64,000 bases of DNA, from NCBI GenBank assembly GCA_963782915.1, contig CAWALK010000012.1:32001-96000 (forward strand). The letters run 5' to 3'. The notes under the pieces were generated by a model. It saw nothing but the letters and a program-made list of their open reading frames with translations. It had not been told where the DNA came from and ran no database searches. This document shows positions 1 to 63,955 of this stretch, piece after piece (positions within the stretch are counted from its first letter, which is position 1; every line of letters begins with the position of its first letter). This stretch comes from an uncultured archaeon (GTDB lineage: Archaea; Thermoproteota; Bathyarchaeia; Bathyarchaeales; Bathycorpusculaceae). A program made the position numbers and the translations under genes.

Positions 1-351
1 CCAGCTGACTATGGCGGATACGCAGATGTGCACCCTAATTTGGTGGATAAAGCCACAGTCAATTCTCCCGTTGACCTCTCAAAAGCCGAAGCCCTAACCA
101 AAAAATACGGCGACAAAATCCGCATCTACCCAGGGTCAATGGAACTCAGAGACGGCAAAAACTACGCCCTCAAATCCAGAGCCATCGGCATCTTAGGCAT
201 CGGTGACAGCATCGAGGAAGCCCGCCAAATCAGCCAAGAAGGAGCCAAAGCCATAACAGGCGGCGCACTCTGGAACCGCACCGACGTCGCAGCCAAAAAC
301 CACATCCAAAAAAGCGTCACTAACATGGAGCAGTTGAGGAACAAGGCTTGA
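1..351 (+). CDS. purD: Phosphoribosylamine-glycine ligase, C-terminal part (5' truncated by window edge)
   Basis: GARS C-domain pattern YGGY..., SRAIGILGIGDSIEEARQIS, LWNRTDVA; lies in a purine gene cluster. Confidence 0.8.
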   Translation, partial: PADYGGYADVHPNLVDKATVNSPVDLSKAEALTKKYGDKIRIYPGSMELRDGKNYALKSRAIGILGIGDSIEEARQISQEGAKAITGGALWNRTDVAAKNHIQKSVTNMEQLRNKA

Positions 352-1430
352 AGCGCCTCTTCGTCTCCGACTGCGAAGGACCCATCAGCAAAAACGACAA
401 CGCCTTTGAGTTAGCGGAGAATTTTATTCCTAACGGCGACAAACTCTTCGCCAATATAAGCAAATACGACGATGTACTCGCCGATATTATTCATAAACCC
501 GATTACTCGGCGGGCAGCACCCTAAAACTGATTTTGCCCTTCTTCAAAGCATACGGCATAACCGACCGCCAAATGGAAGAGTTCTCAGAACAAAACATCG
601 TCTTAATCGCCAACAGCCAAACCACCCTGCAGCATGTGCAGCAGATAGCCGACGCCTTCATCGTTAGCACCAGCTACGAACACTACATCCGAGCCCTATG
701 CAAAGCAGTTGATTTTCCATACAAGAACACTTACTGCACAAAAGTAAGCCTCGACAAAACCCCCATAACACAACAAGAAACAGAACAACTCAAAGTAATC
801 GCGCAGGAAATCGCCCAAATGCGCATAATCGACATCCCCGCAAGCGTAACCTGCATTGAAGATTTTTCGCACTGCGACCAAACACTCATTCAGCGGTTGG
901 ATGAAATTTTCTGGAGTGAAATCCCCAAAATGTTCGTGGGCAAATTGCTCACTGACGTGGTAACCGTTGGTGGGGAACAGAAAGCAGAATCCATCCGTGA
1001 CGCAGCAAAACGCCTCCACGCCGAACTTGCGGATGTTATGTATGTGGGCGACAGCATAACCGACGTAGAAGCCTTCAAACTGGTGCGGGCTAACGGCGGC
1101 TTATCGGTATCCTTCAACGGCAACAACTACGCCGTCAAAAACGCTGAAGTAGCAGTACAATCCGAAAGCAACATAGTAACCGCTGTAATCGCCGACTTAT
1201 TCTGCAAATACGGCAAAGAACAAACCATCAAAGCCCTGAGCGCATGGAACATTGAAACCCTAAAACAAAACCACGTAGACGAAGCATTACTCAAACAACT
1301 CACCAAACTATACCCAGAAACCCTGCCGAAGGTTCAAATAGTCACAACCAAAAATATGGACATAATAGTCAAAGAGAGCAGCGCGTTCAGAAAACAAGTT
1401 AGAGGCATAAGCATAGGAAGATTGGGTTAA
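348..1430 (+). CDS. HAD-superfamily phosphohydrolase, COG4030 / EhaR-like
   Basis: Motif I FVSDCEGPISKNDNAFE, motif II IVSTSY, motif IV YVGDSITDVEAF, SFNGNNYA; TTG start overlaps the purD stop (TTGA). Confidence 0.8.
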   Translation: MKRLFVSDCEGPISKNDNAFELAENFIPNGDKLFANISKYDDVLADIIHKPDYSAGSTLKLILPFFKAYGITDRQMEEFSEQNIVLIANSQTTLQHVQQIADAFIVSTSYEHYIRALCKAVDFPYKNTYCTKVSLDKTPITQQETEQLKVIAQEIAQMRIIDIPASVTCIEDFSHCDQTLIQRLDEIFWSEIPKMFVGKLLTDVVTVGGEQKAESIRDAAKRLHAELADVMYVGDSITDVEAFKLVRANGGLSVSFNGNNYAVKNAEVAVQSESNIVTAVIADLFCKYGKEQTIKALSAWNIETLKQNHVDEALLKQLTKLYPETLPKVQIVTTKNMDIIVKESSAFRKQVRGISIGRLG

Positions 1431-2336
1431 TTGAATAAAAAAATTGATGATACTTACATTGAAGCATTCGCAGGCATTTTCTGCCGCGTAATCGTTACTG
1501 CAGACGATTTGGAAACCGTGCGGAAAGCAGCTGAAGATGCAACCGCAACACCATCCGTTGTGATTGGCAGAACCGAGGGCGGCATAGAAAAATACCTCAC
1601 CGAAAAACAAACCCCCGACGGACGCCAAGGCGCCATTTTACAGTTCTGGGGCGAAATCAACCCAAAAAAGACCTTCCCCGAATCACTCAAGAAATTCGAG
1701 ACTGAACTCTCTTACCGCATCCGCCAAGACATACTCGTTAAACCCTTCACAGCAGTCTACGATGCACTGCCAAGATCTGAAGGCAAACTCGACATGATGG
1801 AGCGTGTAGGTCACTGCGGCGACGGCTACGAATGGGTAGAGCAACGTAATGGCAGAGAAGTCATCGTTGTCCCCTTGATGGTTCCAGACTTCGTTATCGA
1901 ACGCTACATTGGCTATGCCCGCGGAGTTATGGGCGGCAACTTCTGGATAATGTGCACCACCAAAGACGCCCTCAAAGAAGCAGGCGCAAGAGCATTAAAG
2001 GCAATTCACAAAGTGCATGGCGCAGTAACCACCTTTGACATCTGCTCAGCAGGTTCCAAACCCGAAACCCATTTCCCACAGATTGGTCCCACAACCAACC
2101 ACCTCTATTGCCCCTCACTCAAGAAACGTTTAGGCAAGGAATCATTAGTTCCAAACGGAGTGGGCTACATCGCAGAAATCGTCTACGACGGAATGTCCCT
2201 TGATGCAATTAAAGAAGCCACTAAAGTAGGAATCAAAGCAGTCGTAGACATAGAAGGCGTAGTACGTGTCTCCGCAGGCAACTATGGCGGCAAACTAGGC
2301 GAATATAAAATACAATTAAATGAGTTGTTTGTATGA
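1431..2336 (+). CDS. ftr: Formylmethanofuran:H4MPT formyltransferase-family protein (Ftr/EhaS-like)
   Basis: [55 protein letters not shown]; starts directly after the HAD stop codon. Confidence 0.88.
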
Positions 2337-3248
2337 CAAAGTTTGATGTTATCGGTTTCGGCGCACTCAACGTTGACACATTGCTAAAAGTTGACAAAAT
2401 CGCTGGTGCTGAAGAGGAAAGCTTCATCCGCGACTACACAGAAGCCTGCGGCGGTTCAGCAGCAAACACCATCGTTGGGTTAGCGCGTCTTGGCTGCAAA
2501 GTGGGCTTCATCGGCAAAGTCGCAGATGACCACGAAGGCAACCTCCAAATTGACTGCTTCAAAGCCGAAGGCGTAAACACCGACGGCATCATCCACTCGC
2601 CAAAAGGCAAAAGCGGCGTCTGCCTCGGCTTCGTAGACAAAAAAGGCGCAAGAGCACTCTACATTAACCCAGGCGTAAACGACATCATCGAACCCAGAGA
2701 ACTCCAATATGAATACGTTTCACAAACCGAAATATCTGCACCTGTCTTCCTTTGTTGGCGAAAAATCTTTCCGAGCCCAAAAGAAAGTCCTAAGCGGCTT
2801 GCCTGAAGGCGTCAAAATCAGCTTCGACCCAGGCTCCCTCTATGCACAGAAGGGCTTCTCAGCAATCGAACCCATAATCCAAAACAGCTTTGTGATGATG
2901 CCAAACGCCGTAGAACTTAAACTCATAACTGGCGAATCGGACATTCCCGAAGGCGCAGCTATGCTAATCGGTGCAGGCGTTAAAATCGTCGCAGTTAAAC
3001 TGGGCGATAAAGGCTGCTATGTCACTAACGGCGAAGAAAAGAAAACTATAGCGCCCTTCAAGGTTCCAGTAGTCGACACAACAGGCGCAGGTGACGCATT
3101 CAACGCAGGCTTCCTCTACGGTTTAATCCAGAACAGAACATTGGGCGAGTGCGGTAGAATAGGCAATTTTGTGGCGGCTAAAAGCGTAATGAAGATGGGT
3201 GCGCGCGACGGTTTGCCAAAAGAAGAAGATTTAGCATACCTCGGTTAG
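2333..3248 (+). CDS. PfkB/ribokinase-family kinase, split by one extra base near 2729
   Basis: GGSAANT and [13 protein letters not shown] signatures in two overlapping ORFs; span is 305 codons + 1 nt; ATGA overlap with ftr. Confidence 0.85.
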
Positions 3249-3289
3249 CATGTCGCTATCCAACCGCTTTCTCTTCCTTTTCAACTCTT

Positions 3290-3439
3290 TTATGCAATCG
3301 GTAAGGCAATAACCTGCCTTTTTCTCTTGTTTACGGTATGGTCAAGACCGCAAACTGGGCAAAAGACTATTTCGTGGTCAGAAAAGTTCTCGGGGTGAAA
3401 ATCGAATTTTCCGTCGCATCCAACACATTTTACCTTCAA
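3290..3439 (-). CDS. Small zinc-ribbon protein, 49 aa, LysW-like (absent from ORF track)
   Basis: Manual translation MKVKCVGCDGKFDFHPENFSDHEIVFCPVCGLDHTVNKRKRQVIALPIA; TTG start preceded by AGGAGTAAGGAG. Confidence 0.7.
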   Translation of the reverse strand: MKVKCVGCDGKFDFHPENFSDHEIVFCPVCGLDHTVNKRKRQVIALPIA

Positions 3440-3463
3440 CTCGGTTTTCTCCTTACTCCTTAC

Positions 3464-3646
3464 TTAGAATTCGAAGTACTCCAGTTCTAAGCCTCTGCCT
3501 TTATTCACGGTAACTAAGTTGCCTCCACATACTGGGCATGGAACAAGCTGGTATTCCCCGACTTGGTCATACTCAAAGCTTTTTTCACATAGTGGGCAGG
3601 TGAATTTTATTGGGGTGGATTGAAGTGTTTGCATTTTGCTCTCCAC
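3464..3646 (-). CDS. Small LysW-like zinc-ribbon protein
   Basis: CPLC...CPVCG pairs with LysW-like spacing; no C-terminal EDWGE. Confidence 0.7.
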   Translation of the reverse strand: MESKMQTLQSTPIKFTCPLCEKSFEYDQVGEYQLVPCPVCGGNLVTVNKGRGLELEYFEF

Positions 3647-3737
3647 TCTTTAATTGTCTATTTAGAGATAAGAGAAATATGTTAGTAGAAAATAGAAACT
3701 ATATAGAAAGATGAGTGTTCTAAAAGAGGAGCGGTAA

Positions 3738-3815
3738 ATGCTTCCACATCCACACCGCGGTGGTTTGTGCATGGAGCTATGTTGGGTGTGTGGAGAAAAA
3801 ACGATTATCCCAACA
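3738..3815 (+). repeat. Dispersed repeat family A, partial copy
   Basis: ATGCTTCCACATCCACACCGCG...CATGGAGCTATGT...GTGTGGAGAAAAA matches 24690 (+) and 30581 (-). Confidence 0.65.
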
Positions 3816-3916
3816 GTTATCAAAATTCGGTTACCTGCTTGAGGAATCAGCCACAACCATCCTGCAATAAGGAAGGGACGCAGATGCTAAAAAGCAATCA
3901 AAAACACAAGCTGTTG

Positions 3917-3954
3917 GTTGTTGTTGTGTATAGCAGCTTTTCGCCAACAACACC
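3917..3954 (+). repeat. Stem-loop repeat family B
   Basis: GTTGTTG-TGTATAGCAGCTTTTCGC-CAACAAC, close to the copy at 50978-51017. Confidence 0.55.
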
Positions 3955-3993
3955 CTGAGAAAAAACAAAAGAGGGGCTAAAAAAGTAGAAAGC

Positions 3994-4863
3994 CTAAATT
4001 TCGCTTCCAACTGGTACAGCAAACGTACTCCCAAATGTGCTCTTCGAACAAGTTTTGGTTAGTTTGTTGATGATGCTTTGGAAAATGTATTTTCCGTGAC
4101 CATACTGAAGCATCTGGCTTTCTTTTGTCCAGCCTGGCAGCTGCCACCAATACATCGCCCTCTCAGGATGCGGCATCAAACCGAAGATGTTGCCTTCCTT
4201 GTTGCATATGCCTGCTATGTCATAGAAGCTGCCGTTGGGGTTTTGGGGGTATTTGCCTTCTGCTACTGTGCCGTCTTTGCTGCAGTAACGGAAAACAAGC
4301 ATGTCCTCGTCAACGAGCTTCTTGAGCAATGCTTCTTCTTTTTCTTTGGGGAATAGTAGTCTGCCTTCGCCATGCGCAATTGGTAACTGGATGGTTTTGC
4401 CTTGTGGAATGCCGTCGGTGAAGGCGCATTTGCCTTTGTTCTCCTGTTTGAGGTAAACCCATTTACATTTGAAACCTGCTGGTTCATTAGTGGTCAATGT
4501 AGCTTCGGGGTAATCGCTGATGCCCTCGAAACCTGGTAGCAAACCGTATTCAACCAAGATTTGGAAGCCGTTACATATGCCAAGGATGGGTCTGCCTTCG
4601 TCAACGAAGCTTTGGATTTCTTTGCCCAGATTCGCTGAGAGGTGCCTTGCGAAGATGACGCCTGAACGCACATAGTCACCATACGAGAAGCCGCCTGGGA
4701 AAACCAGCATGCTATAGTCGAGTAGGTTGCGGCGTTTGATCATGTCGCTGACTTGGACAACTTCAGCTTGTACACCGAGTTCAGTGAATGCTCTTTGGGT
4801 TTCGGCGTCGCAGTTAGTTCCGCCAACGCGTAGTACGCAGACTTTGATGTCTTCGTGGTTCAT
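3994..4863 (-). CDS. purQ: FGAM synthase glutaminase subunit PurQ
   Basis: GTNCD, PGGFSYGD, GICNGFQ, AHGEG, NPNGS, GLMPHPER. Confidence 0.97.
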   Translation of the reverse strand: MNHEDIKVCVLRVGGTNCDAETQRAFTELGVQAEVVQVSDMIKRRNLLDYSMLVFPGGFSYGDYVRSGVIFARHLSANLGKEIQSFVDEGRPILGICNGFQILVEYGLLPGFEGISDYPEATLTTNEPAGFKCKWVYLKQENKGKCAFTDGIPQGKTIQLPIAHGEGRLLFPKEKEEALLKKLVDEDMLVFRYCSKDGTVAEGKYPQNPNGSFYDIAGICNKEGNIFGLMPHPERAMYWWQLPGWTKESQMLQYGHGKYIFQSIINKLTKTCSKSTFGSTFAVPVGSEI

Positions 4864-7247
4864 TGTGTTGTCTCCTCTGGGTTGAGGGTTTTTTTCCAGC
4901 TTTGCCGCAGCTTATCCAGCGGTGCATCAACGACGATTTCGCCGTTTAAGCCAGTTATGCTTAGTTTTGGTTCTTTGGTTACTATGCCGATTTGGCTGCA
5001 GTTTTTGCCTTTCATAAGTTCTTCGAAGTCCTCTTTGTCCCTTTGTGCGACTTCGATTAGGAAGCGGCTGTTGGATTCTGAGAACAGCACAAAATCGTTG
5101 CGCGCTACATCTTTGACGGGTACCATTTGCAGGTTAATTTCTAAGCCTAAGCCGCTTGCAAACGCCATCTCCGCCGCAGCCACCGCCAATCCGCCCTCGG
5201 AGAGGTCATGGCACGATTTCACCATGCCAAAATCGATGGCTTTAGTAACCACATTAAACGTGCGTTTAGCTTTGCCGCCGTGCACTTTAGGCACAGACGC
5301 GCCTAAGTAACCTTTGAGTTTGTAATATTCGCTGCCGCCTAGTTCAGGATAGGTTTCGCCTATGATGTAGATGGGGTTGCCTGCTTCTTTGAGGTCAACG
5401 GAGACGGTTAATTCGATGTTGGGGTTAACGCCGATTGCTGTGATGAGCAATGTTGGGGTTACGGGTCCGAGTGGGGATTCGTTGTAGAGGCTGTCTTTGC
5501 CTGAGATAAACGGTGTTTTGAACATGACTGCAAAGTCGTAGCATGCTTCACAGGCGCGTACTAGTGAGCCGAGGCGTTCTGTTTTTTCTGGGTTGCCCCA
5601 GGTGAAGTTGTCTAAGATGGCGATTCTTCTGCCGCCTACTGCGATGTTGTTGCGTATGGCTTCGTCGATTGCTGAAGCTGCCATCCAGTATGGATCGATT
5701 TTGCCGTAGTTTGGGTTCATGCCGCAGCTGATGACTAAGCCTTTGATGGAGTCATCGACTGGTTTGAGCACTGCCGCATCGTTGGGTCCAGCATAATCGC
5801 CTTGCAATGGCTTGAGTAGGGTGTTGCCTTTGACTTCATGGTCGTAGGTGCGGATTACTGCTTCTTTGCTGGCAATGTTGGGCGCCGCAAGCAGTTGCAG
5901 AAGTGTTTCTGTGAGGTCAGCTGGCTCCGCAAACTCTGGTTCCACAAGTTTGGGTGTTTCGATTGTGGCGATTTTAGTGGTTTCACATGGGCTGAAGAGG
6001 AATTCCATGTCGATGTCTGAGACTAACTCGCCGTTGTAGCTGAGCTGCAATCGTCTCTCTGGAATAAGTTGACCAATAGCTGTTGCGAGGACATCTTCTC
6101 TTTCGAAAATCGTCATAACCCGCTCCAAGTTCTCGGCAGGTATAGTCATGAGCATGCGTTCTTGTGATTCAGAAAGATAAATCTCCCAAGGCGACAATCC
6201 CTGATATTTCAAGGGAACTTTGCCAAGGTCAACCGCGACTCCGCAGTTGAAGCGTTCACCTGTTTCGCCCACAGCTGAGGATAAGCCTCCGCCGCCTATG
6301 TCAGTTATAGCTGAGCCCAATTGTAAGTCTCGGATTGCAACCACTGCCCGTTTGACTTTCTCTTCCTCGATGGGATCGGCGATTTGGACTGCTGGGCGGC
6401 TGATTTCCTCTGATTTTTCGGTGAGTTCGGCTGATGCGAAGGTTACGCCGTGGATGCCGTCGCGTCCTGTTTTTCCGCCTGATAATACTATGTAGTCGCC
6501 GACTTTGGCGCTTTTAACGTATTTGTCGAGTGGGAGTAGTCCGATGCAGCCGCAGTAGACGACGACGTTTCCTGTGTAGGATTCGTCGAAGTATATTGCG
6601 CCGTTAACGGTTGGGATGCCCATGTTATTGCCATATGCGCTGATGCCTGCGGTGACGCCCCGATAGATGTATTTGGGGTGTTTTACGCCTGCAGGTAACT
6701 TGTTATAATCATAATCTAGGGGACCAAAACCTAAGACGTCTGTGCATGCGATTGGGTCTGCCCATACGCCTAAGATGTCTCGGATGACGCCGCCGACACC
6801 TGTTGCTGCACCGCCAAAAGGCTCCACCGCTGAGGGGTGATTGTGGGTTTCCACTTTCGCTGCGATGCCATAGCCCTTATCGAATTTGACAATCCCCGCG
6901 TTGTCTTCAAAAACGCTAAAGCACCATGGCGCCTTAATTTCCTTCGTTGCTTTGGCTAGGTATGTTTTGAATAGGCTGTTGATTTCTTTGCCGTCGAGTT
7001 TGATTTTGCCTTTGAAGGTTTTGTGGCAGCAGTGTTCACTCCACGATTGGCTAATCGTTTGCAACTCGACGTCGGTTGGGTTGCGGTTTTCTTTTTTGAA
7101 GTAAGCTTGAATAACCGATAGTTCCTCTGCACTGAAGCCCAATGCGAGTTCGCTGTTGATTTCAGCTAACTGCTCGGGTGTGGCTTTGGCTGTTTGGATT
7201 TCTAGAACAGGGCTGTTTTTGCGCTGTGCAATGAGGTCGGCGTTCAT
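4860..7247 (-). CDS. purL: FGAM synthase subunit PurL
   Basis: WSEHCCHKTF, ETHNHPSAVEPFGGAATGVGG, GRDGIHG, SESQERM, SGKDSLYN. Confidence 0.97.
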   Translation of the reverse strand: MNADLIAQRKNSPVLEIQTAKATPEQLAEINSELALGFSAEELSVIQAYFKKENRNPTDVELQTISQSWSEHCCHKTFKGKIKLDGKEINSLFKTYLAKATKEIKAPWCFSVFEDNAGIVKFDKGYGIAAKVETHNHPSAVEPFGGAATGVGGVIRDILGVWADPIACTDVLGFGPLDYDYNKLPAGVKHPKYIYRGVTAGISAYGNNMGIPTVNGAIYFDESYTGNVVVYCGCIGLLPLDKYVKSAKVGDYIVLSGGKTGRDGIHGVTFASAELTEKSEEISRPAVQIADPIEEEKVKRAVVAIRDLQLGSAITDIGGGGLSSAVGETGERFNCGVAVDLGKVPLKYQGLSPWEIYLSESQERMLMTIPAENLERVMTIFEREDVLATAIGQLIPERRLQLSYNGELVSDIDMEFLFSPCETTKIATIETPKLVEPEFAEPADLTETLLQLLAAPNIASKEAVIRTYDHEVKGNTLLKPLQGDYAGPNDAAVLKPVDDSIKGLVISCGMNPNYGKIDPYWMAASAIDEAIRNNIAVGGRRIAILDNFTWGNPEKTERLGSLVRACEACYDFAVMFKTPFISGKDSLYNESPLGPVTPTLLITAIGVNPNIELTVSVDLKEAGNPIYIIGETYPELGGSEYYKLKGYLGASVPKVHGGKAKRTFNVVTKAIDFGMVKSCHDLSEGGLAVAAAEMAFASGLGLEINLQMVPVKDVARNDFVLFSESNSRFLIEVAQRDKEDFEELMKGKNCSQIGIVTKEPKLSITGLNGEIVVDAPLDKLRQSWKKTLNPEETTQ

Positions 7248-7495
7248 TTCTGTTCAACAACGCTGATTGTGTAGTTGTCTTTAGTTGGGTTAGCCAGTAG
7301 GCGTTTGCTCATTTCTTCCGCTTTCGCCTTCGCTTCAGCAGGAGAGGTTGCTTCCAAAAAGACAGTGTAGACTTTGCTGACATCAACGGCTTCTACTCTA
7401 TAGCCGAGTTCGATGAGGAGTCTTGCGGTGGTTTCGCCTTCCGGGTTGCTGTGTCCGGGTTTGAGGCTGACTTCGATTTTGGCAGCGTATTTCAT
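7244..7495 (-). CDS. purS: FGAM synthase subunit PurS
   Basis: 83 aa, LKPG..NPEG, LLANP; overlaps purL start. Confidence 0.93.
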   Translation of the reverse strand: MKYAAKIEVSLKPGHSNPEGETTARLLIELGYRVEAVDVSKVYTVFLEATSPAEAKAKAEEMSKRLLANPTKDNYTISVVEQK

Positions 7496-7553
7496 AGTCC
7501 TCTAAATTAAGCAATCGGGATTTAAACGCTTTCGCCACAAACACTGCAAAACT

Positions 7554-8636
7554 CTACGATAGAATCATGTGTTTCTTACCGTGCTCTATCTCGACGACGC
7601 GTTCTTTGTTGGTTACTTTGCCGATTCGCTGTGGTGTGATGCTGTCCTGTTCCAGTACATTCATGGCTTTGTCGATGTCGCTTTTGTCGACGATGATGCC
7701 AAAGCCCCAGCCCATGTTAAAGGTTTTGAACATTTCCTCGTCAGTTACTGTGTAACCTAATTCGGCGGCGGTTTTCTGGATTAAGCCAAAGATTGGTTGG
7801 GGTGTGAAATTGGTGAATTTGAAGCCGATGCCCGGTGAGAAGTTGGCGAGGTTGTTGAATTTGGTGTAGCCGTCGCCTGTAATGTGGACTGCGCCTTTAA
7901 CCTTGACTTCCCGTGCTAACTTGAGCAGCGCTTTAACGTAGATTTTGGTGGGTTCCAAAACTTCAAGCGCTACTTCGCGGTCTAAACCCTCTGGGATGTC
8001 GGTCGCGTCGTATTTGCCTCCCCACTGCTTGAATAGAATCTTGCGTACAAGCGTGATGCCATTGCTGTGGACGCCGCTGCTGGCTAATCCGATGATGGGG
8101 TCGTCTGGTTTTATGTCTTCGCCGGTTATGATGTTTTGGCGCTCCACTTTGCCCACGCAGGAGGCAACCATGTCAAAACCTGAGTTGGGTTTAATGCCCT
8201 TGATGATTTCTGCGACGTCACCTGTTTCGCCGTTCACTATTGGGCATTCGGATTGCTCTGCGCCCGAGATTAAGCCTTTGAGCCATGCGTTGACGAGTTT
8301 AGGTTCACTCGCTACTGCGTGAATGTTATCTGCGAGGGCGAGCGGTGTTGCGCCGCTGCGTATAACATCATTTACCACCATAGCTACGGCGTCGATGCCG
8401 ATGGTGTCATATTTTTCGGCGAGTTCAGCGATTAGGACTTTAGTGCCGACACCTTCGATCTCAAGGTCCAAAAACGTGTCTTCACCGACTGGAAAAATGT
8501 TACTGTAGGGCAAATGCATGATGCCGCCGAAGCCAATGTGCTTATAGGTTTCTTTGAGGCTTGAGAGTGCTTTTTTGGATTCGACGCGTTGGGCTCGGTT
8601 GACGCCGGCGTCTGTGTAGGTGTAGTTTTTGGGCAT
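7554..8636 (-). CDS. purM: AIR synthetase PurM (start moved to MPKNYTY)
   Basis: YTDAGV, EGVGTK, GETG, SSGVHSNG, LEPTKIY, HITG, TFNMGWG. Confidence 0.93.
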   Translation of the reverse strand: MPKNYTYTDAGVNRAQRVESKKALSSLKETYKHIGFGGIMHLPYSNIFPVGEDTFLDLEIEGVGTKVLIAELAEKYDTIGIDAVAMVVNDVIRSGATPLALADNIHAVASEPKLVNAWLKGLISGAEQSECPIVNGETGDVAEIIKGIKPNSGFDMVASCVGKVERQNIITGEDIKPDDPIIGLASSGVHSNGITLVRKILFKQWGGKYDATDIPEGLDREVALEVLEPTKIYVKALLKLAREVKVKGAVHITGDGYTKFNNLANFSPGIGFKFTNFTPQPIFGLIQKTAAELGYTVTDEEMFKTFNMGWGFGIIVDKSDIDKAMNVLEQDSITPQRIGKVTNKERVVEIEHGKKHMILS

Positions 8637-8909: not shown

Positions 8910-9743
8910 TTGATTCACATGCCGACGCCCAAATACCACATCTACATAGAATACAGTGAAACGGAAAAAGGCGGATTCCGATTCAACATCACCCAAGAAG
9001 AACTAGTGCGCACTTTTTCAGAACCCTTCAGTGCCGGCAAACCCTTCTGGTTTCTGGGCAGGCTCCTTAACCCCCTCAAAGTCACTAAAACCGTCCTGTT
9101 CTGGTCCTACGAATCTGCCAACATGCTATGGTTGCCCAACCAAGAGACGCTTATAGCTGCCAAAGACAAAAAATACGTAGTAGACAGCATCGAAAAAGGG
9201 AAAGTCAAAGGCGCCTATCTTTGCACAGAAAAATATTTGGCTAAACCCCAAACAGTAACCGCACAGTCGGTAGCATCCTCTTCGGCAAAACGCAGGATCC
9301 TTGTGGTTTGTGGCGCAGACGATGAAATGAAAAAAGCAATAACCTCAGCTCTGAGTAAGCTTTGGCTCATTCCTGTCCTGTTATGTGAGGAGCCAAGCCA
9401 CGGCAGAAAACTCCTAGAACGCTCTGCAGACTATGCCGATGTCGGTTTTGCCGTGGTTTTGCTGTCGCCTGACGATTTTGCTTACGCCAAAAACGAAGAC
9501 TCTACCACACGCAAGCTTAAGCCCCGGCAAGAAGTGGTTTTCGAATTAGGCTACCTGCTGGGCAAACTCGGAAAGGCAAATGTGCTTGTTTTCTTTAAGG
9601 AATGCTTGAACTTTGAGCCGCCCACTGATTTTGAAGGCATGAAAACGGTAGCGTTTGATGCGCTTGATAGCTGGAAGCTTGCCCTCATCCGTGAACTGGG
9701 CAATAGTGGGTACGTGGTGGATGCGGGTAGGATACTGGAATAA
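8910..9743 (+). CDS. TIR-like nucleotide-binding domain protein (CAP12/Pycsar-type TIR) with unknown N-terminal domain
   Basis: C-terminal FAVVLLSPDD...KPRQEVVFELGYLLGKLG...PTDFEG. Confidence 0.8.
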   Translation: MIHMPTPKYHIYIEYSETEKGGFRFNITQEELVRTFSEPFSAGKPFWFLGRLLNPLKVTKTVLFWSYESANMLWLPNQETLIAAKDKKYVVDSIEKGKVKGAYLCTEKYLAKPQTVTAQSVASSSAKRRILVVCGADDEMKKAITSALSKLWLIPVLLCEEPSHGRKLLERSADYADVGFAVVLLSPDDFAYAKNEDSTTRKLKPRQEVVFELGYLLGKLGKANVLVFFKECLNFEPPTDFEGMKTVAFDALDSWKLALIRELGNSGYVVDAGRILE

Positions 9744-9819: not shown

Positions 9820-10182
9820 TTACTCATGTGCACCCTTGGTTTTTTGCTCTATAATAGCCAACAACTCCTGAGGCTTTACAGGTTTCAATAAGTACGCATC
9901 CGCCAATTCAGCACTATTGGACACACTCACAATAGAACTTGTGAGGACTATCCTCGCCGTTTCGTTATCCCTTTCCTTTAGCTTCTCAAGAAAGCCTAAG
10001 CCCTCAGTGTCGGATAGGCAGAAATCAACCAACGCCACATCATAATGATTCAAACCCATCTTCTGCAATGCCTCCTCTCCGCTATGCGCAACATCCGCAC
10101 TGTAACCGTTCCTCTCCAAAATCCGTTCAAACGTCCGCGTAATGCCGGCATCAGCATCGATAATCAACACTACTTTACCCAA
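9820..10182 (-). CDS. Single-domain response regulator receiver
   Basis: VLIIDAD, DVALVDF (phospho-Asp), VLTS, YLLKPV. Confidence 0.85.
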   Translation of the reverse strand: MGKVVLIIDADAGITRTFERILERNGYSADVAHSGEEALQKMGLNHYDVALVDFCLSDTEGLGFLEKLKERDNETARIVLTSSIVSVSNSAELADAYLLKPVKPQELLAIIEQKTKGAHE

Positions 10183-20168: not shown

Positions 20169-20188
20169 GTCCATCAGAAGTGGAAGTA

Positions 20189-21100
20189 ATGTCCTTCAAA
20201 TTCAACACAAACCAAAATATCTACACAGTTGGTAAAGCAAAAGTAGGCGGTCAGCCAGGAGAACTACCAACTTTCCTGATCGGTTCTATCTTTTGGCTAG
20301 GCCAAAAAATGGTCCAAGATGCCAACAAAGGCATTTTCGATGCAAAAGCAGCTGAACAAATCATCAACACAATGCAAACTCAAAGCGACATAACAGGTGT
20401 ACAATTTGCACTTGACATTGTCGGCACCACTGAAACTGCATTCGAAAAATACATTGACTTCGTCCCACAACACACTGACGCACCACTCATGCTCGACGCA
20501 ATGAGTCCAAAGACCAGAATGGCAGCAGCTAACTTAGCAAAGAAAATGGGCCTAACAGATAGATGCCTCTACAACTCAGTCTATAAAGGCGTAACCGATG
20601 CAGAATTGGCAAACCTCAAAGAAAGTGGCATTAAAATGTCCATTGTTCTAGCTGACGATCCTAAAGACACCACAATGGAAGGCAAAATGAAGGTTATAGT
20701 AGAAGCCTTAGCATTAGCCGAAAAAGGCGGAATCACAAAACCACTCATCGACACTGCCATTCCAGCATTCGAACCAGACATGGGCACAGCCGTCAGAACC
20801 ATTCCAATCATGAAAGAGAAGTATGGTCACCCTGTAGGCTTAGGCAGCGGTAACGTTGTCACAACCATGGGTTGGGTCAAAGCAAACGTTGCAAAAGAAT
20901 TCCGCAAGGGAACAGTAACTGCCACAAACACTATCATGCAAATGGCAGGCGCCAACTGGCTCATGATCGGACCAGCCGAACAAGCAGAATGGGTCTTCCC
21001 AGCCGTCGCAGTGACAGACACATACATTGCATCTGCCGCAGCGGACCTAGGAACACGTCCACTCGAAGAATCGCACCCGATCTACAAAGCTTTCATGTAA
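20189..21100 (+). CDS. mtrH: MtrH/MtgA-family pterin:corrinoid methyltransferase
   Basis: VGGQPGELPTFLIGSIF, FDAKAAE, YNS, PLIDT, YGHPVG, GANWLMIGP. Confidence 0.85.
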   Translation: MSFKFNTNQNIYTVGKAKVGGQPGELPTFLIGSIFWLGQKMVQDANKGIFDAKAAEQIINTMQTQSDITGVQFALDIVGTTETAFEKYIDFVPQHTDAPLMLDAMSPKTRMAAANLAKKMGLTDRCLYNSVYKGVTDAELANLKESGIKMSIVLADDPKDTTMEGKMKVIVEALALAEKGGITKPLIDTAIPAFEPDMGTAVRTIPIMKEKYGHPVGLGSGNVVTTMGWVKANVAKEFRKGTVTATNTIMQMAGANWLMIGPAEQAEWVFPAVAVTDTYIASAAADLGTRPLEESHPIYKAFM

Positions 21101-21143: not shown

Positions 21144-21560
21144 GTGTTTGCCCTGAAACCGCTTAGATGGTTTGAAATCGTCGTTTCGTTTACAGTATTA
21201 ACGTTAGTCGCTACTTATCTTATCTCAGCAGATTCTTACTTGGTTGGTATCCGCTATGTTTTAGGATACTCCTTCATCGTATTTCTACCAGGCTACTGCC
21301 TAGTCAACATACTCTTCCTGGGCAAAAACCGCATAGACTTCGTCGAAACCCTCGTGCTATCAATTGCCCTAAGCTTCGGCTTAACCGGCATAGTCGGCTT
21401 ATTCCTTGGCCTATCTCCTATAGGAATAACATTCGTTCCCATCACAGTATCATTAGGTACACTGGTGCTCGCTTTAGCAGCAATAGCATACATAAGAAAA
21501 AATAAGGAAAAAGAGCTACCAGTACTTCAAGTGCAAAGCCCGCAGCAAATAAGCGCCTGA
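21144..21560 (+). CDS. DUF1616-like membrane protein
   Basis: RYVLG...FLPGY.LV..LF...E.LVLSIALS motif, 4 TM segments. Confidence 0.7.
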   Translation: MFALKPLRWFEIVVSFTVLTLVATYLISADSYLVGIRYVLGYSFIVFLPGYCLVNILFLGKNRIDFVETLVLSIALSFGLTGIVGLFLGLSPIGITFVPITVSLGTLVLALAAIAYIRKNKEKELPVLQVQSPQQISA

Positions 21561-22898
21561 AGTTCTAACCGCTGATTTTCCGTAAGTTCCGCCTTTACGC
21601 ATCATATGCAGAACATATCCCGGGCGGAGATAGAATTGTTGGTAAGCTTTGCCTCGGAGTTCAGCTAGTTTCTCCATGCTTAACTGGGGAGTTTCAAAGG
21701 TTGGTCCGGCTGTATCGAATTTGTCAAAGTCACTGATTTTTAGCCAGCCATTCTTAACGACTTGCTCATACATTGGCGTTCCCGGATAAGGTGTTGCTAC
21801 ATAGAATCCTACGTCGTCAGGGTTAACTTTTTTCACGAATTGGATGGTTTGCTTAGCTGTTTGTTCTGTTTCGCCTGGGAAACCCAACACCACGTTTGCG
21901 ATTGTTATTAAGCCGACTTTTTGGGCTGTTTTGAAGGCTTTGAGTGTTTGATCCAGTTTAATGCTCTTGTTCATCGCTCCCAATATGGCTTCGGAGCCTG
22001 ATTCCACGCCCATCCAAACAGCGATGCAACCAGCTTTACGCATAGTCGTCATTAGTTCCCGGTCAACCATGTCAACGCGTGTGCCGCAATCCCACATTAA
22101 GTTGAGTTTTCGTGCGTTGAGTTCCTCGCAGATTTGAAGCACTCGGTTGCGGTCTACGCTAAAAGCGTCATCGTAGAAAGTAACTTGGTCGACACCGTAT
22201 TTTTCGTGGACAAACTGCATTTCATCAACCACGTTTTTGGCGCTACGCATGCGGTAACCCCTGCCAAACATTCGCACAGTGCTGCAGAAGTCACACCAAA
22301 ACACGCATCCGCGGCTGCTGACGAGTGGGACGAGAAGTTTGCCATTATGCTTGAGGTTATCAAGAGGCATAAGATGATGAGCGGGGAAGGGGATGCTGTC
22401 GAGGTCTTTGATGTATGGCCGATCAGGGTTGCGAATGGTTTTGTCGCCGTCACGATAAGTAATACCTAATACGCCATCGAGTTTGGCGCCGCTTTCGAGT
22501 TTCTCGGCTAGTTCCACAAGGGTTAATTCGCCTTCGCCTCGGACGATGATGTCAACTGCTGGGTACTCTTTGAGTGCGTTTTCATCCCAGAAAGTGCCAT
22601 GGCTTCCACCGAGGGCAATGGTGGCGTTGGGTTGAGCTTCTTTTGCGATGGTGAGAATGTGCATGGCGGATTTATAGAGAAGCGTCGTGGAGGTTGCCCC
22701 GATAAAGTCTGAAGGTGTTTCAGCGATGCGACTGCGGAAGGTTTCATAAGTTAATTTTTCGGCTTGGCAATCAATAACTTTGACTTGGTGGCCTGCTTTC
22801 TCGGCGACTGCACCCAAATATGCTAATCCCAATGGGATGAAGGGTGGATGGGAATGGACGCTTGGCGGATAAGGTGGATTGACGAGGGTAATTTTCAT
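21516..22898 (-). CDS. Cobalamin-dependent (class B) radical SAM protein
   Basis: N-terminal B12-binding domain (PLGLAYL, GGSH), SRGCVFWCDFC, FYDD, GVESGS, TPYPGT. Confidence 0.92.
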   Translation of the reverse strand: MKITLVNPPYPPSVHSHPPFIPLGLAYLGAVAEKAGHQVKVIDCQAEKLTYETFRSRIAETPSDFIGATSTTLLYKSAMHILTIAKEAQPNATIALGGSHGTFWDENALKEYPAVDIIVRGEGELTLVELAEKLESGAKLDGVLGITYRDGDKTIRNPDRPYIKDLDSIPFPAHHLMPLDNLKHNGKLLVPLVSSRGCVFWCDFCSTVRMFGRGYRMRSAKNVVDEMQFVHEKYGVDQVTFYDDAFSVDRNRVLQICEELNARKLNLMWDCGTRVDMVDRELMTTMRKAGCIAVWMGVESGSEAILGAMNKSIKLDQTLKAFKTAQKVGLITIANVVLGFPGETEQTAKQTIQFVKKVNPDDVGFYVATPYPGTPMYEQVVKNGWLKISDFDKFDTAGPTFETPQLSMEKLAELRGKAYQQFYLRPGYVLHMMRKGGTYGKSAVRTSGAYLLRALHLKYW

Positions 22899-23019: not shown

Positions 23020-24420
23020 TTAGGAGAGTTTTACGTGCATTGCGCGAAGTGCATAAGCCGCAGATGTTTTCAGTCCGGATCGGCCGTATGTTCCGCCTCT
23101 GCGCATCATCTTGAGCATGTAGCTTGGTCTTAGGTAGAATTTTTGGTGGGCTTTGTATTTGATTTCTCTGAGGAGTTCCATGCTTAGCTCTGGGGTTTCG
23201 AATGTTGGGGTTGCTGTGTCGTATTTGTTGAAGTCTGTTACTCTTAGCCAGCCGTTTTTGACGACTTCCTCGTACATTGGTGTCCCAGGGTATGGTGTGG
23301 CGATGTAGCAGCCGATGTCGTCTGGGTTAAGTGAATTGATGAAGTTGATGGTTTCCCATGCGGTTTCTTCTGTTTCGCCGGGGAAGCCGATGACTGCCGA
23401 GGCGATGGTCATCATGCCTGTTTTCTGCGCAGTTTTGAAGGCGTCTTTGACTTGTTCACGGTTAATTTTCTTATGCATCTTTTCAAGGATCTTGGTTGAG
23501 CCGGATTCTACGCCGAACCAAACCGTAATGCAGCCTGCTTTACGCATGATTTCAAGCAGTTCTTTGTCGACTGCGTCTACGCGTGTTTCGCAGTCCCACT
23601 CGACTTTTAGTTTGCGGTCGAGGATGTCTTGGCACATTGCGATTGTATGATTGCGGTTGATGGTGAATGCGTCGTCGTAGAAAGTGAATTGGCTTTCGCC
23701 GTATTTGTTATGGAGGGCTTCCATTTCGTCTACGACTTTGTGGGGGTTGCGAACTCTGTATCCTCTGCCGAACATTCGCACAGTGCTGCAGAAGTCGCAC
23801 CATTGTACGCATCCTCTGCTTGTGACTAGTGGGAAGATGGTTTTGCCCATGCGGTGGAATGCGTCTACTGGGAGAAGGTGGTAGGCTGGTGATGGGAGGC
23901 TGTCGAGGTTCATGAGGAATGGGCGGTCTTCATTTCGGATGATGGAGCCGTTTGGTCCCCGATAGGTTATGCCCAAAATGCTTGCAAATGATTGTTTATT
24001 TTGTAGGGCTGATAAGAGTTCGGTGAATGTGTTTTCGCCTTCGCGTCGGACGATAACGTCGATTGCGGGGCATTCGTTTAGGGCGTTTTCGTCCCAGAAG
24101 GTTACGTGGCTTCCGCCGATCATGGTGGTTGCGTTGGGGTGGACTTCTTTGGCTGCTGTTATGATGGCTTTAGCTTGGTTATAGAGCAGCGTGGTTGAGG
24201 TTACGCCGATAACATCGGGTTGTACTTGGCCGATTCGGGCTCGGAATGCCTCGACGGTGAGGCGTTCGGCTTGGCAGTCAATAACATTTACTTCATGTCC
24301 AGCCTGTTCTGCAACAGCGCCCAAATAAGCTATGCCTAATGGGATGAATGGTGGATGTGAATGAGCATTTGGAGGATAGGGTGGATTGACAAGAGTAACC
24401 TTCACGATTCTTAGCCCCAA
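23020..24420 (-). CDS. Cobalamin-dependent (class B) radical SAM protein, tandem paralog
   Basis: PLGIAYL, SRGCVQWCDFC, GVESGS, TPYPGT; collinear with 21516-22898; start may be GTG at 24405. Confidence 0.92.
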   Translation of the reverse strand: MGLRIVKVTLVNPPYPPNAHSHPPFIPLGIAYLGAVAEQAGHEVNVIDCQAERLTVEAFRARIGQVQPDVIGVTSTTLLYNQAKAIITAAKEVHPNATTMIGGSHVTFWDENALNECPAIDVIVRREGENTFTELLSALQNKQSFASILGITYRGPNGSIIRNEDRPFLMNLDSLPSPAYHLLPVDAFHRMGKTIFPLVTSRGCVQWCDFCSTVRMFGRGYRVRNPHKVVDEMEALHNKYGESQFTFYDDAFTINRNHTIAMCQDILDRKLKVEWDCETRVDAVDKELLEIMRKAGCITVWFGVESGSTKILEKMHKKINREQVKDAFKTAQKTGMMTIASAVIGFPGETEETAWETINFINSLNPDDIGCYIATPYPGTPMYEEVVKNGWLRVTDFNKYDTATPTFETPELSMELLREIKYKAHQKFYLRPSYMLKMMRRGGTYGRSGLKTSAAYALRAMHVKLS

Positions 24421-38271: not shown

Positions 38272-39304
38272 TTACTCATTTGTATTTTTTACAATTTTAA
38301 TTAATGCATCCCTTATGAAGGGTGGCAACTCGACAGCATCATAACCCTGCAGCTTTTTGTAGTTCCCAGTATTGCCTATGCAGTCTGTTATTTGGTTCCA
38401 GTTTTGAAAGTCAGTTGGTAGCAGGTTTTTCTTGTAGTCATCATCCATTTTCGCAGCCGCCAACAGGGAAGCCAACGCCGACGGATTATTCTGCAGTAGT
38501 TCCGTCAATTTTTCGGCAGTGATTTCTAAGCCTTTGATTTTGGAGACTTCAGCAGCCAACTTCTCAACTGGGAGATGCCGCTCTTTTAGCCTGTCGAGAA
38601 CGGAGCGGTTTGCCCAAAAAGGCTCCTGCCGAACCAGCGCCTCAGTAACAGCAAGCCGAGCACAGTAACCGACTATTTTCCCAAACTTCGACGCAGGACC
38701 ACCCAAAACGATAGGCGCCCCTTTGCCTGTAGAAGCTACGGTAACGCTGTCGGTTATTGAGCCCGTTGCGGAATCGCCACTATAGCGGCTTCTAACATCA
38801 AAATCGCGGAGCGCCGCCGACTTGGCTTCAGTGGCAGTAATCAATGCAGCAACCATGCAGCTTTCAAGTGGTGCCCCATCCACAAAAACGATGATGTTAA
38901 TGGTTCCTGTGATTTCCTGTACATCTATTTGCTTCGCCTGAGGATTCGCCGTGTTGGCATCCAGCGGTTGCAGCTACAGCGACAGTGTAAGCATCTGTTT
39001 TTTTGGTTACTAAACTAAAGTTGTGAACGTTTGCCGCTGTAACCATTGCAAGGTAATCTTGAGTTATGCCCAATTTGGCTGCGGAGGTTGTGATGAGTTC
39101 CATGGGGTCTATGTGGAGGGCTTTGTCACTGTACCCTTTAGGCACCCCAACATTGAGCACATACTTTACACGTTTGGCTCCGCCGTTAAAGAATGCTGAA
39201 CTAACAGTCGCCAACCCATCCGGCGAAGAAACAGCTAAAACGTTGTCTTTAACAATAAATTTAACGTTGCTTGCTAAGTCAAGCTCCTGATCCAAATTTG
39301 CCAA
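38272..39304 (-). CDS. cbiZ: Adenosylcobinamide amidohydrolase, split by one extra base near 38932
   Basis: SSAFFNGG, MVTAA, ATAG, GTIN, TATEAK, ATGSITDS; span is 344 codons + 1 nt. Confidence 0.82.
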
Positions 39305-59228: not shown

Positions 59229-59882
59229 TTGGCAGAAAATAAATTTAAATTATCTGACATATTCGGCGGCATTATCATACCGATTATTCTTGTGCTACTC
59301 ATCTATGTCTTTGCGGTCTATCTTAACGTTGGCGGAGAGTTCCATCTTCTTGGCGATCAGAACATCGTTGCTATTATTCTTGTCTCAGGCTTTGCTCAAA
59401 TGATTATTCTTGGTATCCCATTGGTTTTAGGCTTGCTTTGGAATAAATGGGCCGGCGGAGCAGCAGGCTTCGTTATGGGTGGTCTCTATTACGTGGCAAG
59501 TGCAGGTCAGTATACAGCAAGTTATGCAACATATTCTCAGGGGCTTGTCAATTACAACTTCTTTGGCGACATTAGCATGCTTTTCTATCTGGTTAACGCG
59601 GTCATCATCGGCTACATGGCAGGCGCAATTAACAACGGATCCATGAACTTTAAACGAATGCTCCTGGCAGGTTTAACTGCTGCTATGGTTACAGCTGTTA
59701 TCCAAGCGTACATGAACTATTACGTCTCGCTTCCAGTAGCTAGAGGTATGGCTCAGGCGGCTTGGTTAGATGTGCCAAACGCGATATTGGTGAACTTTGT
59801 ACCAAGTATTGCTTTAGGTGTAATCGTTCCGATTCTTGCTAAAGTAATGACCTGGTATGGAATTTATCCGCAGAAACACTAA
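59229..59882 (+). CDS. 6-TM membrane protein, copy 1 (ECF S-component-like)
   Basis: 217 aa hydrophobic; LGLLWNKWAGGAAGF Gly pattern; no Cys. Confidence 0.7.
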   Translation: MAENKFKLSDIFGGIIIPIILVLLIYVFAVYLNVGGEFHLLGDQNIVAIILVSGFAQMIILGIPLVLGLLWNKWAGGAAGFVMGGLYYVASAGQYTASYATYSQGLVNYNFFGDISMLFYLVNAVIIGYMAGAINNGSMNFKRMLLAGLTAAMVTAVIQAYMNYYVSLPVARGMAQAAWLDVPNAILVNFVPSIALGVIVPILAKVMTWYGIYPQKH

Positions 59883-60268: not shown

Positions 60269-60922
60269 TTGGCAGAAAATAAAATAAAGATATCTGATAT
60301 ATTCGGCGGCATTATCATACCGATTATTCTTGTGCTACTCATCTATGTCTTTGCGGTCTATCTTAACGTTGGCGGAGAGTTCCATCTTCTTGGCGATCAG
60401 AACATCGTTGCTATTATTCTTGTCTCAGGCTTTGCTCAAATGATTATTCTTGGTATCCCATTGGTTTTAGGCTTGCTTTGGAATAAATGGGCCGGCGGAG
60501 CAGCAGGCTTCGTTATGGGTGGTCTCTATTACGTGGCAAGTGCAGGTCAGTATACAGCAAGTTATGCAACATATTCTCAGGGGCTTGTCAATTACAACTT
60601 CTTTGGCGACATTAGCATGCTTTTCTATCTGGTTAACGCGGTCATCATCGGCTACATGGCAGGCGCACTCAACAATGGCTCAATGAATTTCAAACGTATG
60701 CTAGGCGCAGGTTTAACTGCTGCTATGGTTACAGCTGTTATCCAAGCGTACATGAACTATTACGTCTCGCTTCCAGTAGCTAGAGGTATGGCTCAGGCGG
60801 CTTGGTTAGATGTGCCAAACGCGATATTGGTGAACTTTGTACCAAGTATTGCTTTAGGTGTAATCGTTCCGATTCTTGCTAAAGTAATGACCTGGTATGG
60901 AATTTATCCGCAGAAACACTAA
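60269..60922 (+). CDS. 6-TM membrane protein, copy 2 (4 aa differences from copy 1)
   Basis: Near-identical tandem duplicate including about 60 bp of upstream promoter. Confidence 0.7.
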   Translation: MAENKIKISDIFGGIIIPIILVLLIYVFAVYLNVGGEFHLLGDQNIVAIILVSGFAQMIILGIPLVLGLLWNKWAGGAAGFVMGGLYYVASAGQYTASYATYSQGLVNYNFFGDISMLFYLVNAVIIGYMAGALNNGSMNFKRMLGAGLTAAMVTAVIQAYMNYYVSLPVARGMAQAAWLDVPNAILVNFVPSIALGVIVPILAKVMTWYGIYPQKH

Positions 60923-62310: not shown

Positions 62311-62409
62311 TGAAATATATCCCCTTGATTGTACGTTAAAACCGTCTGGTAACGTAATAAAGTTTCCGCAAAAACGTTTAACACAAGAAAGGGGCGAAAA
62401 ATTTGCTGT

Positions 62410-63817: not shown

Positions 63818-63955
63818 ATGGTCTACACGCACATGTGCTGGAGTGATAATGTTGGGTATAGCTTAACGGACGCTGTTTTTCCTTATGAAGTTTTAGCTAA
63901 CTTTGAGGGTTTATGGATTTTGGGGTTTTGACCTGACTTGGGCTTATCAGGTTTT

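Follow-up and report, generated by a model that had tools for sequence, protein, structure and literature searches.

A HAD–Ftr2–PfkB gene triad behind purD in a Bathyarchaeial genome: a candidate replacement for PurN and PurT in purine biosynthesis

Introduction

Two enzymes are described for step 3 of purine biosynthesis, the formylation of glycinamide ribonucleotide (GAR) to formylglycinamide ribonucleotide (FGAR): PurN, which is folate dependent (EC 2.1.2.2) and takes its formyl group from 10-formyl-tetrahydrofolate (10-formyl-THF), and PurT, an ATP-grasp ligase which uses free formate via formyl phosphate and is the alternative for folate-free archaea. That the step-3 enzyme is missing has been acknowledged for Methanobacteriales, Methanopyrus and Archaeoglobi since 2011 at the latest, and ANME-1 (anaerobic methanotrophic archaea) was added afterwards (PMC3261824; PMC9012536). 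Seven archaea lack any GAR formyltransferase, namely two Archaeoglobi, four Methanobacteriales (given as Methanomicrobiales in the paper's text) and M. kandleri (PMC3261824), and ANME-1 is without PurN and PurT (Chadwick 2022, PMC9012536). In this work we have analyzed a stretch of 64,000 nucleotides of an uncultured Bathyarchaeial genome (the window; G000:C12:32001-96000), in which purD is followed by genes for a HAD-superfamily protein, a paralog of the formyltransferase Ftr (here Ftr2) and a PfkB-family kinase. Gene order and gene distribution suggest that this triad quite probably supplies GAR formylation, with Ftr2 as the transferase.

The proposed reaction is that of PurN, on the same glycinamide amine, and the triad occupies the slot after purD that PurN takes in sister genomes; the PurN fold, however, is unrelated to Ftr2, its donor is 10-formyl-THF and not the formyl group of tetrahydromethanopterin (H4MPT) or methanofuran, and it works without a phosphatase or kinase beside it. 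PurT is found in the same slot in families f17 and f22, and its cost of one ATP would be matched here if a phosphate is indeed taken off and put back, but PurT is a formate ligase and none was found in this genome. Structures of archaeal Ftr (1FTR, 1M5H, 1M5S) provide a further comparison, Ftr2 sharing with them the two-lobe fold, a conserved Glu and 62 common positions, while being linked to HAD, PfkB and pur genes and not to genes of the one-carbon (C1) pathway. PurU and Fhc share their folds with the PurN-like and Ftr-like transferases discussed below and are connected in E. coli with the supply of formate for purine synthesis, but they release formate instead of formylating an amine, and their hydrolase partners are absent here. 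A PfkB-type salvage of a purine-intermediate riboside also exists, adenosine kinase being able to phosphorylate aminoimidazole carboxamide riboside; the 5'-phosphate is likewise restored, but opportunistically, whereas the step proposed here would be an obligatory part of de novo synthesis.

A comparable arrangement is that of EhaR, EhaS and EhaT in the eha operon of Methanothermobacter, where the same three families (HAD, Ftr-like, ribokinase-like) lie in one transcription unit. According to Kaster 2011 (PMC3087415), EhaS is Ftr-like and EhaT ribokinase-like, and they were first annotated as Ftr and ribokinase, respectively. The triad differs in lying in a purine operon with no hydrogenase nearby, and its orthology to EhaR/S/T rests on JGI naming together with the description in that paper; at the level of families the link drawn in the original prediction is sound.

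Comparative Genomics of the Triad

The source genome, which is 93.5% complete in 25 contigs, encodes PurF, PurD, PurLSQ and PurM, as well as two tandem PurP-like genes covering the later formylation. It had been noted before that the window holds neither PurN nor PurT, and this absence extends to the whole genome searched: at 93.5% completeness neither PurN (TIGR00639) nor a Formyl_trans_N domain of any kind (PF00551) was matched, and the best score for PurT (TIGR01142) was 41 bits against a cut-off of 502, the weak matches being pieces of carB (carbamoyl-phosphate synthase) and two other ATP-grasp genes. In this pathway step 3 (GAR to FGAR) is left as the sole step without a known gene in this genome. 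The triad lies in an operon of the order purF-purD-HAD-Ftr2-PfkB on the plus strand, which is convergent with purQ-purL-purS-purM on the minus strand, the two sets meeting tail to tail within the first 8.6 kb of the window.

The distribution of these proteins was examined in 151 Bathyarchaeia genomes, the same draw being used for each protein search. Matches of at least 48% identity were taken as Ftr2 grade, identities being bimodal with Ftr1, the other Ftr of this group, at 43% or less; PurT-like proteins were defined by E≤1e-20 and strong PF00551/PurN matches by at least 110 bits, and FTw denotes a PurN relative of about 270 aa whose PF00551 score is below 110 bits. Matches were found in 57 genomes for Ftr2, 62 for HAD, 13 for PurT-like proteins, 54 for PF00551 (17 of them at 110 bits or more) and 122 for PurD; 22 of the 151 genomes were without any of the five proteins, PurD included. 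HAD was present in 57 of 57 Ftr2 genomes, and the 62 HAD genomes carried Ftr2 (57) or a PurN-like protein (five) and never neither. Not one of the 57 Ftr2 genomes had a strong PF00551 match or a PurT-like match of 225 bits or more. Conversely, the 63 genomes positive for PurD and negative for HAD comprised 12 with a PurT-like protein, 16 with a strong PurN, 28 with FTw only and seven with none. Alternation is seen even within family f16 (Ftr2 plus HAD in two genomes, PurT-like in eight and PurN in one). The proposed check for an anti-correlation of the triad with PurN and PurT came out positive, as a complementary distribution over the 151 genomes. PfkB (at least 173 bits) follows HAD closely, with 57 of its 58 genomes among the 151 being HAD-positive; the sole HAD-negative one, G119, is a 77%-complete assembly in which purD and PfkB lie at contig ends.

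The FTw proteins (L115:6186-7001, L114, L125, L098-L101) score 81 bits for PurN, keep the SGSGTN loop and have a C-terminal extension; FTw is possibly the GAR formyltransferase of the 28 of 151 genomes where it is the only PF00551 protein. PurD itself scores 222-270 bits in most Bathyarchaeia with the module (TIGR00877 cut-off 288) and 300-505 bits in relatives bearing PurN or PurT. A divergent PurD was considered as a requirement of the mechanism and rejected, since G051 (397 bits) and 21 HAD genomes of a second archaeal class, treated below, have a canonical PurD.

Linkage was assessed by a locus scan with a 12-sequence HAD alignment and one genome per species, which placed HAD in 541 species; the best 80 of these 541 loci were kept, almost all of them Bathyarchaeia, and the counts refer to the 75 among these best 80 that are titled Bathyarchaeia or Thermoproteota. 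That the triad clusters with pur genes, a second check proposed earlier, is evident from all 75 loci: purD lies directly upstream of HAD in 75/75, purF lies upstream of HAD in 59/67, purL is within the HAD locus in 48/57, and downstream of HAD there follow Ftr2 within 2.2 kb in 67 of 71 and PfkB in 63 of 67 assessable loci. Where Ftr2 is not adjacent (four loci), and at one locus that could not be assessed, an Ftr2-PfkB pair lies elsewhere in 5/5 cases, convergent with purQ in 3/5, and PF00551 was found in none of the five genomes.

The gene directly after purD is PurN in G072, G057 and G082, FTw followed by PurN in G129 and G154, FTw alone in G090, and PurT in G036 and G026. The same slot is taken by PurN-like-HAD-PfkB in G048 and G157, and by HAD-Ftr2-PfkB in the triad genomes; within family f26 this operon carries Ftr2 in three genomes and the PurN-like protein in two. 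Such an exchange of one formyltransferase fold for another in place, while HAD and PfkB stay, argues that Ftr2 is a formyltransferase on the same acceptor, and no other single observation speaks as strongly for that reading.

Ftr2 (301 aa; 1431-2336, plus strand) matches both lobes of Ftr, FTR and FTR_C, over its full length (PF01913, 146.7 bits; PF02741, 177.7 bits). The genome carries a second and more canonical Ftr, Ftr1, on contig C20: this copy scores 313, 301 and 295 bits against three solved archaeal Ftrs and the window copy 182, 170 and 160 bits, the two being 31% identical. Ftr1 and Ftr2 form two deep clades in a tree of 65 sequences, and the non-Bathyarchaeial archaeon G171 has one copy in each; both the bit scores and the separate deep clade place Ftr2 outside the group of biochemically characterized Ftrs. 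Conservation across both clades extends to 62 positions; at a further 26 each clade has its own conserved residue, and Ftr2 carries an insertion near residues 75-84. The Glu of the Ftr2 motif IAEIVYDG, conserved in both clades, aligns with the Glu of VYEIVING in 1M5H; in FhcD a protonated Glu (Glu252) is described as stabilizing the oxyanion (PMC6926001). One archaeon, G168, has a HAD-linked Ftr2-like copy only and no Ftr1.

The first gene of the triad (348-1430, plus strand) encodes a predicted EhaR-like HAD-superfamily phosphatase of 360 aa with weak generic HAD matches in Pfam. Its motifs I to IV (DCEGP, STSY, GGxxK and GDSITD) show little or no variation among 44 orthologs, motif I carrying Glu at Asp+2, and the structure of a homolog is available (PDB 1Y8A, AF1437; E 3.4e-33). 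Many of its 120 closest homologs bear the JGI name "energy-converting hydrogenase A subunit R."

A second archaeal class was studied through G169 (locus L058), a metagenome-assembled genome titled Methanomassiliicoccales; 101 genomes of its class were searched. In L058 the genes for PfkB, a PurN-like protein and HAD are coupled, and the only other relevant gene is a canonical PurD. HAD occurs in 21 of the 101 genomes, which pair it with a PurN-like protein and all have PurD (21/21); their best PF00551 scores do not exceed 81 bits, two of the 21 have no such match at all, and no PurT-like protein (E≤1e-20) was found in any of them (0/21). By comparison PF00551 reaches at least 122 bits in 78 of the 80 HAD-negative genomes, one of which, G275, is unpublished. 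A fused PurN-like-HAD protein also exists (P0206). Eleven of the 21 HADs keep motifs I to IV and ten have lost the nucleophile Asp and other motifs, and the module PfkB is present in 11/11 genomes with an intact HAD, in 0/10 with a degenerate HAD and in 0/80 without HAD. The HAD-linked PurN-like proteins keep the Asn/His/Asp triad, but where PurN and FTw have a G-x-G-[ST]-N loop, which we take to hold the GAR phosphate in E. coli PurN, they have STGRDxAAR. In the degenerate pairs (L159-L166, L175, L178; the name Methanomethylophilaceae is attached to one cluster member) the HAD beside the PurN-like gene has lost motif IV and the nucleophile Asp, and is likely a pseudo-enzyme partner.

The PfkB gene (EhaT-like, ribokinase-like; 2333-3248, plus strand) matches PF00294 in both halves, and its best NCBIfam matches are ribokinase and ribose-1-phosphate kinase, all below cut-off. 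What we take to be the PfkB signature regions (GG...N near the N-terminus and DTxGAGD) are present as CGGSAAN and DTTGAGD. All genes of the original prediction (purD, HAD, Ftr, PfkB and purM/S/L/Q) were found, but PfkB is not one open frame in the window: it is split between 2333-2806 (157 aa) and 2709-3248 (179 aa), which lie in different frames. Five relatives of the same genus have an intact PfkB of 303-307 aa, and in a sixth (L013) it is also split. DNA alignment with four intact relatives places one extra base near 2729, and a public contig differing from the window at 5 of 267 letters is without one base at 2734 (a single contig of depth 2). Since other genes of this assembly are likewise split (purF, C12:29402-30884; carB, C20:169056-172327; purP, C18:213149-214824; cbiZ, window 38272-39304), we read the break as an assembly indel, which is likelier than a strain-specific mutation.

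Proposed Function and Alternatives

On balance, the best overall explanation of these data is that the triad represents a non-orthologous replacement of PurN and PurT for the conversion of GAR to FGAR, and comparative genomics supports the earlier proposal of a purine module whose Ftr paralog would formylate GAR or its riboside. In the mechanism we propose, PurD makes GAR and HAD would hydrolyze its 5'-phosphate; Ftr2, an old paralog of the C1-pathway Ftr which keeps the fold and the oxyanion-stabilizing Glu, would take a formyl group from H4MPT (or methanofuran) and place it on the primary amine of the riboside's glycinamide moiety; and PfkB would use ATP to re-phosphorylate the formyl-GAR riboside, yielding FGAR for PurLSQ. 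In net terms the detour would cost one ATP, as PurT does. In other archaea the same module would contain a divergent PurN-like protein instead of Ftr2. The part played by HAD and PfkB is the more tentative portion of this scheme: a phosphate-off/phosphate-on detour, suggested by co-occurrence and by the chemistry of the PfkB family, is conceivable, though we would put it at somewhat less than an even chance. PfkB kinases phosphorylate primary hydroxyls, and on the GAR scaffold the 5'-OH alone qualifies. This chemistry, together with the occurrence of PfkB only with an intact HAD and the altered loop of the PurN-like proteins, favors the order HAD, transferase, PfkB. The earlier suggestion that the two enzymes remove and restore the 5'-phosphate thereby gains indirect support, PfkB being found only where HAD keeps its catalytic motifs.

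A broader version, which we regard as speculative and rather doubtful as a whole, would make this a widespread third, non-homologous FGAR route of folate-free archaea (dephosphorylation by HAD, formylation of the riboside by the Ftr paralog, re-phosphorylation by PfkB) and EhaR/S/T of methanogens the same module. ATP hydrolysis via PfkB would then pull a weak formyl donor, the low-potential pool of formyl-H4MPT and formyl-methanofuran, into purine C8, and the co-transcription of EhaR/S/T with the anaplerotic Eha would be explained by their drain on the formyl pool, which Eha replenishes. The GAR-formyltransferase gap of Methanobacteriales, Methanopyrus, Archaeoglobales and ANME-1 would thereby be closed. 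In Chadwick 2022, Ftr2 is reported from ANME-1, Archaeoglobales, M. kandleri and M. marburgensis; there the distribution of Ftr2 and the missing PurN and PurT stand in separate sections and are not joined (PMC9012536).

Several observations weigh against a role in GAR formylation or against parts of the scheme. Mutual exclusivity has exceptions in G021 (Ftr2 with a 175-bit PurT-like protein) and G166 (Ftr2 with a 79-bit PF00551 match), and Chadwick 2022 reports Ftr2 beside PurN in ANME-2a/2b (PMC9012536). Because of the kinship between the genomes compared, there are fewer independent events than the counts suggest. Brown 2011 records the belief that formyl-H4MPT is no functional formyl donor (PMC3261824). 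The HAD family also occurs away from purine genes: in L132 and L133 an ATP-grasp-HAD fusion is surrounded by unrelated genes, the Aenigmatarchaeota metagenome-assembled genome G170 (0.6 Mb) has an ATP-grasp/HAD pair with no PurD seen, and in a bacterial bin HAD adjoins eda. In ten genomes of the second class the PurN-like protein is accompanied by a degenerate HAD and PfkB is absent, from which we conclude that the transferase is not always in need of the phosphatase and kinase; a loss of the detour need not break the pairing of transferase and HAD. Finally, a genuine PfkB frameshift would leave this strain with an incomplete module.

The ATP-grasp-HAD genes (L132:10001-12895, L133:10001-12913 and L018:2079-4854) consist of a PurT/PurK-like ATP-grasp fused or adjacent to a DWEGP-type HAD, with two small conserved open reading frames (ORFs) upstream and non-pur surroundings. 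They (P0198, P0208 and L018) were tried as a third formyltransferase partner and rejected, their PurT/PurK-like match being only about 33 bits; nor were the fusions counted as support, there being no pur or PfkB genes around L132 and L133 and one carrier being without PurD.

Sharing 62 positions and the catalytic Glu with Ftr1 and scoring above the NCBIfam Ftr cut-off (NF002554, 330.9 bits against 297), Ftr2 could be a true Ftr isoenzyme, that is, a second formyl-methanofuran:H4MPT formyltransferase of the C1 (Wood-Ljungdahl or methanogenesis-type) pathway whose pur location is regulatory or accidental. GAR would then be formylated by another enzyme, such as a formate-using PurP-like ATP-grasp, and the two tandem PurP-like genes of this genome fit such a role, as do the unexplained PurP duplicates noted in Brown 2011 (PMC3261824). 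We consider this improbable, since Ftr2 was never found without HAD (57/57 genomes), is swapped for a PurN-like protein in the same purD operon (G048, G157), coincides with a canonical PurN or a 225-bit PurT in none of the 57, and in G168 is present as a HAD-linked copy without Ftr1. A similarly low probability attaches to the module releasing formate or formyl phosphate from its carrier and so feeding PurP and an unidentified formate-dependent GAR ligase, in the way of PurU for PurT in E. coli or Fhc in methylotrophs. PurP needs formate (Kaster 2011, PMC3087415), Ftr homologs act in a formate-producing complex (PMC6926001), and the second-best family match of the PurN-like proteins is formyl-THF deformylase; yet such a scheme gives no role to a sugar-type kinase and a phosphatase, has no FhcA/B/C-like partners adjacent, leaves the GAR formyltransferase still missing, and sits poorly with the true GAR formyltransferases that sister genomes hold in the slot after purD.

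That the triad acts on another ribosyl compound, in a step of H4MPT or methanofuran biosynthesis or in the salvage of purine-intermediate ribosides, and is only co-regulated with the purine genes, is unlikely as well, if marginally less so. H4MPT biosynthesis does include an unassigned dephosphorylation, the NCBIfam matches of PfkB and HAD are all far below cut-off, and relatives of HAD occur outside pur contexts; but 89 of the 151 Bathyarchaeia genomes are without the triad, Ftr1 and with it presumably H4MPT being kept in many of them, the 21/21 HAD genomes of the second class lack canonical PurN and PurT (no Ftr was found in G169, the single one examined for it), and the distribution follows the absence of PurN and PurT and not cofactor use. 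Very improbable indeed is the role to which the KEGG and JGI names of the three proteins point, that of subunits, structural or accessory, in an Eha-type energy-converting hydrogenase. Although JGI names the HAD EhaR, and although the genes are co-transcribed with ehaA-Q in Methanothermobacter according to Kaster 2011 (PMC3087415), purD neighbors HAD in 75/75 Bathyarchaeial loci and all three proteins have soluble enzyme folds with their catalytic motifs kept. Nor is there a 49-kDa-type hydrogenase subunit (PF00346) in or near the window: no match was found within it, the nearest lies on the contig about 330 kb past its end, and the three PF00346-type genes of the genome are all elsewhere; as the original prediction had it, the neighbors are pur genes and no hydrogenase gene is adjacent.

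Read as a GAR formylation module, the locus joins two puzzles, the missing step-3 enzyme and three conserved but functionally unassigned "Eha subunits," and it names three soluble proteins that are open to expression and assay. No published link of Ftr2 or EhaRST to GAR formylation was found in the full-text literature, most subscription journals being outside that search. If the reading is true, the view that methanopterin-bound formyl cannot feed purine synthesis would be overturned, and a textbook pathway would be extended by a further analogous enzyme, perhaps also by a bypass driven by phosphatase and kinase. Thousands of genes that at present go under Ftr, ribokinase or EhaR would have their annotation corrected, and metabolic models of methanogens, methanotrophic archaea and Bathyarchaeia would be improved.

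Gene Layout and Neighboring Features

The 5' end of the operon lies upstream of the window on the same contig, where purF (G000:C12:29402-30884) is split in two frames and is followed by purD (GAR synthetase; full gene G000:C12:30936-32351, TIGR00877 234.6 bits, below the cut-off of 288). The window itself opens with the last 116 codons of purD (1-351, plus strand; C-terminal match to GARS_C/TIGR00877). The junctions of the triad all read as claimed before, with a TTGA overlap of purD and HAD at 348-351 in which the TTG start of HAD overlaps the purD stop, a zero gap between HAD and Ftr2 (TAA then TTG, 1428-1433) and an ATGA overlap of Ftr2 and PfkB at 2333-2336. Facing the triad operon, as predicted, are four minus-strand genes, namely purQ (glutaminase subunit of formylglycinamidine ribonucleotide [FGAM] synthase; 3994-4863; NF002252, 314.4 bits, cut-off 298), purL (FGAM synthase II; 4860-7247; TIGR01736, 683.1 bits, cut-off 525.75), purS (7244-7495; TIGR00302, 67.2 bits, cut-off 39) and purM (aminoimidazole ribonucleotide synthase; 7554-8636; TIGR00878, 271.8 bits, cut-off 236.35). 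The ORF of purM is open to 8819, and the family match starts at the ATG at 8636. No sequencing run contained more than 0.16 of the words sampled from the stretch, and no RNA data set was listed among its carriers.

The spacer between PfkB and purQ is 745 bp long; on its minus strand (3290-3646) there is a tandem of two small zinc-ribbon ORFs, roughly 55 and 60 aa in length, both showing a CxxC...CPVC pattern. In relatives of the same genus the ends of PfkB and purQ abut or overlap, and the spacer with its zinc-ribbon ORFs would therefore be a local insertion. Just past purM the plus strand encodes, at 8910-9743, a protein of 277 aa that has a TIR effector domain of the CAP12/Pycsar type (76.6 bits), beside a minus-strand ORF of 120 aa (9820-10182) which resembles a receiver domain by eye only. 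An MtrH homolog (20180-21100, plus strand; 261.5 bits) is consistent with the use of H4MPT. Three minus-strand genes with near-identical N-termini (21516-22898, 23020-24420 and 62378-63832) are B12-binding radical-SAM-like, an assignment taken from a scan of the first one. Towards the end of the window lies a tandem pair of 217-aa ORFs on the plus strand (59229-59882 and 60269-60922), whose almost identical N-termini suggest a recent duplication.

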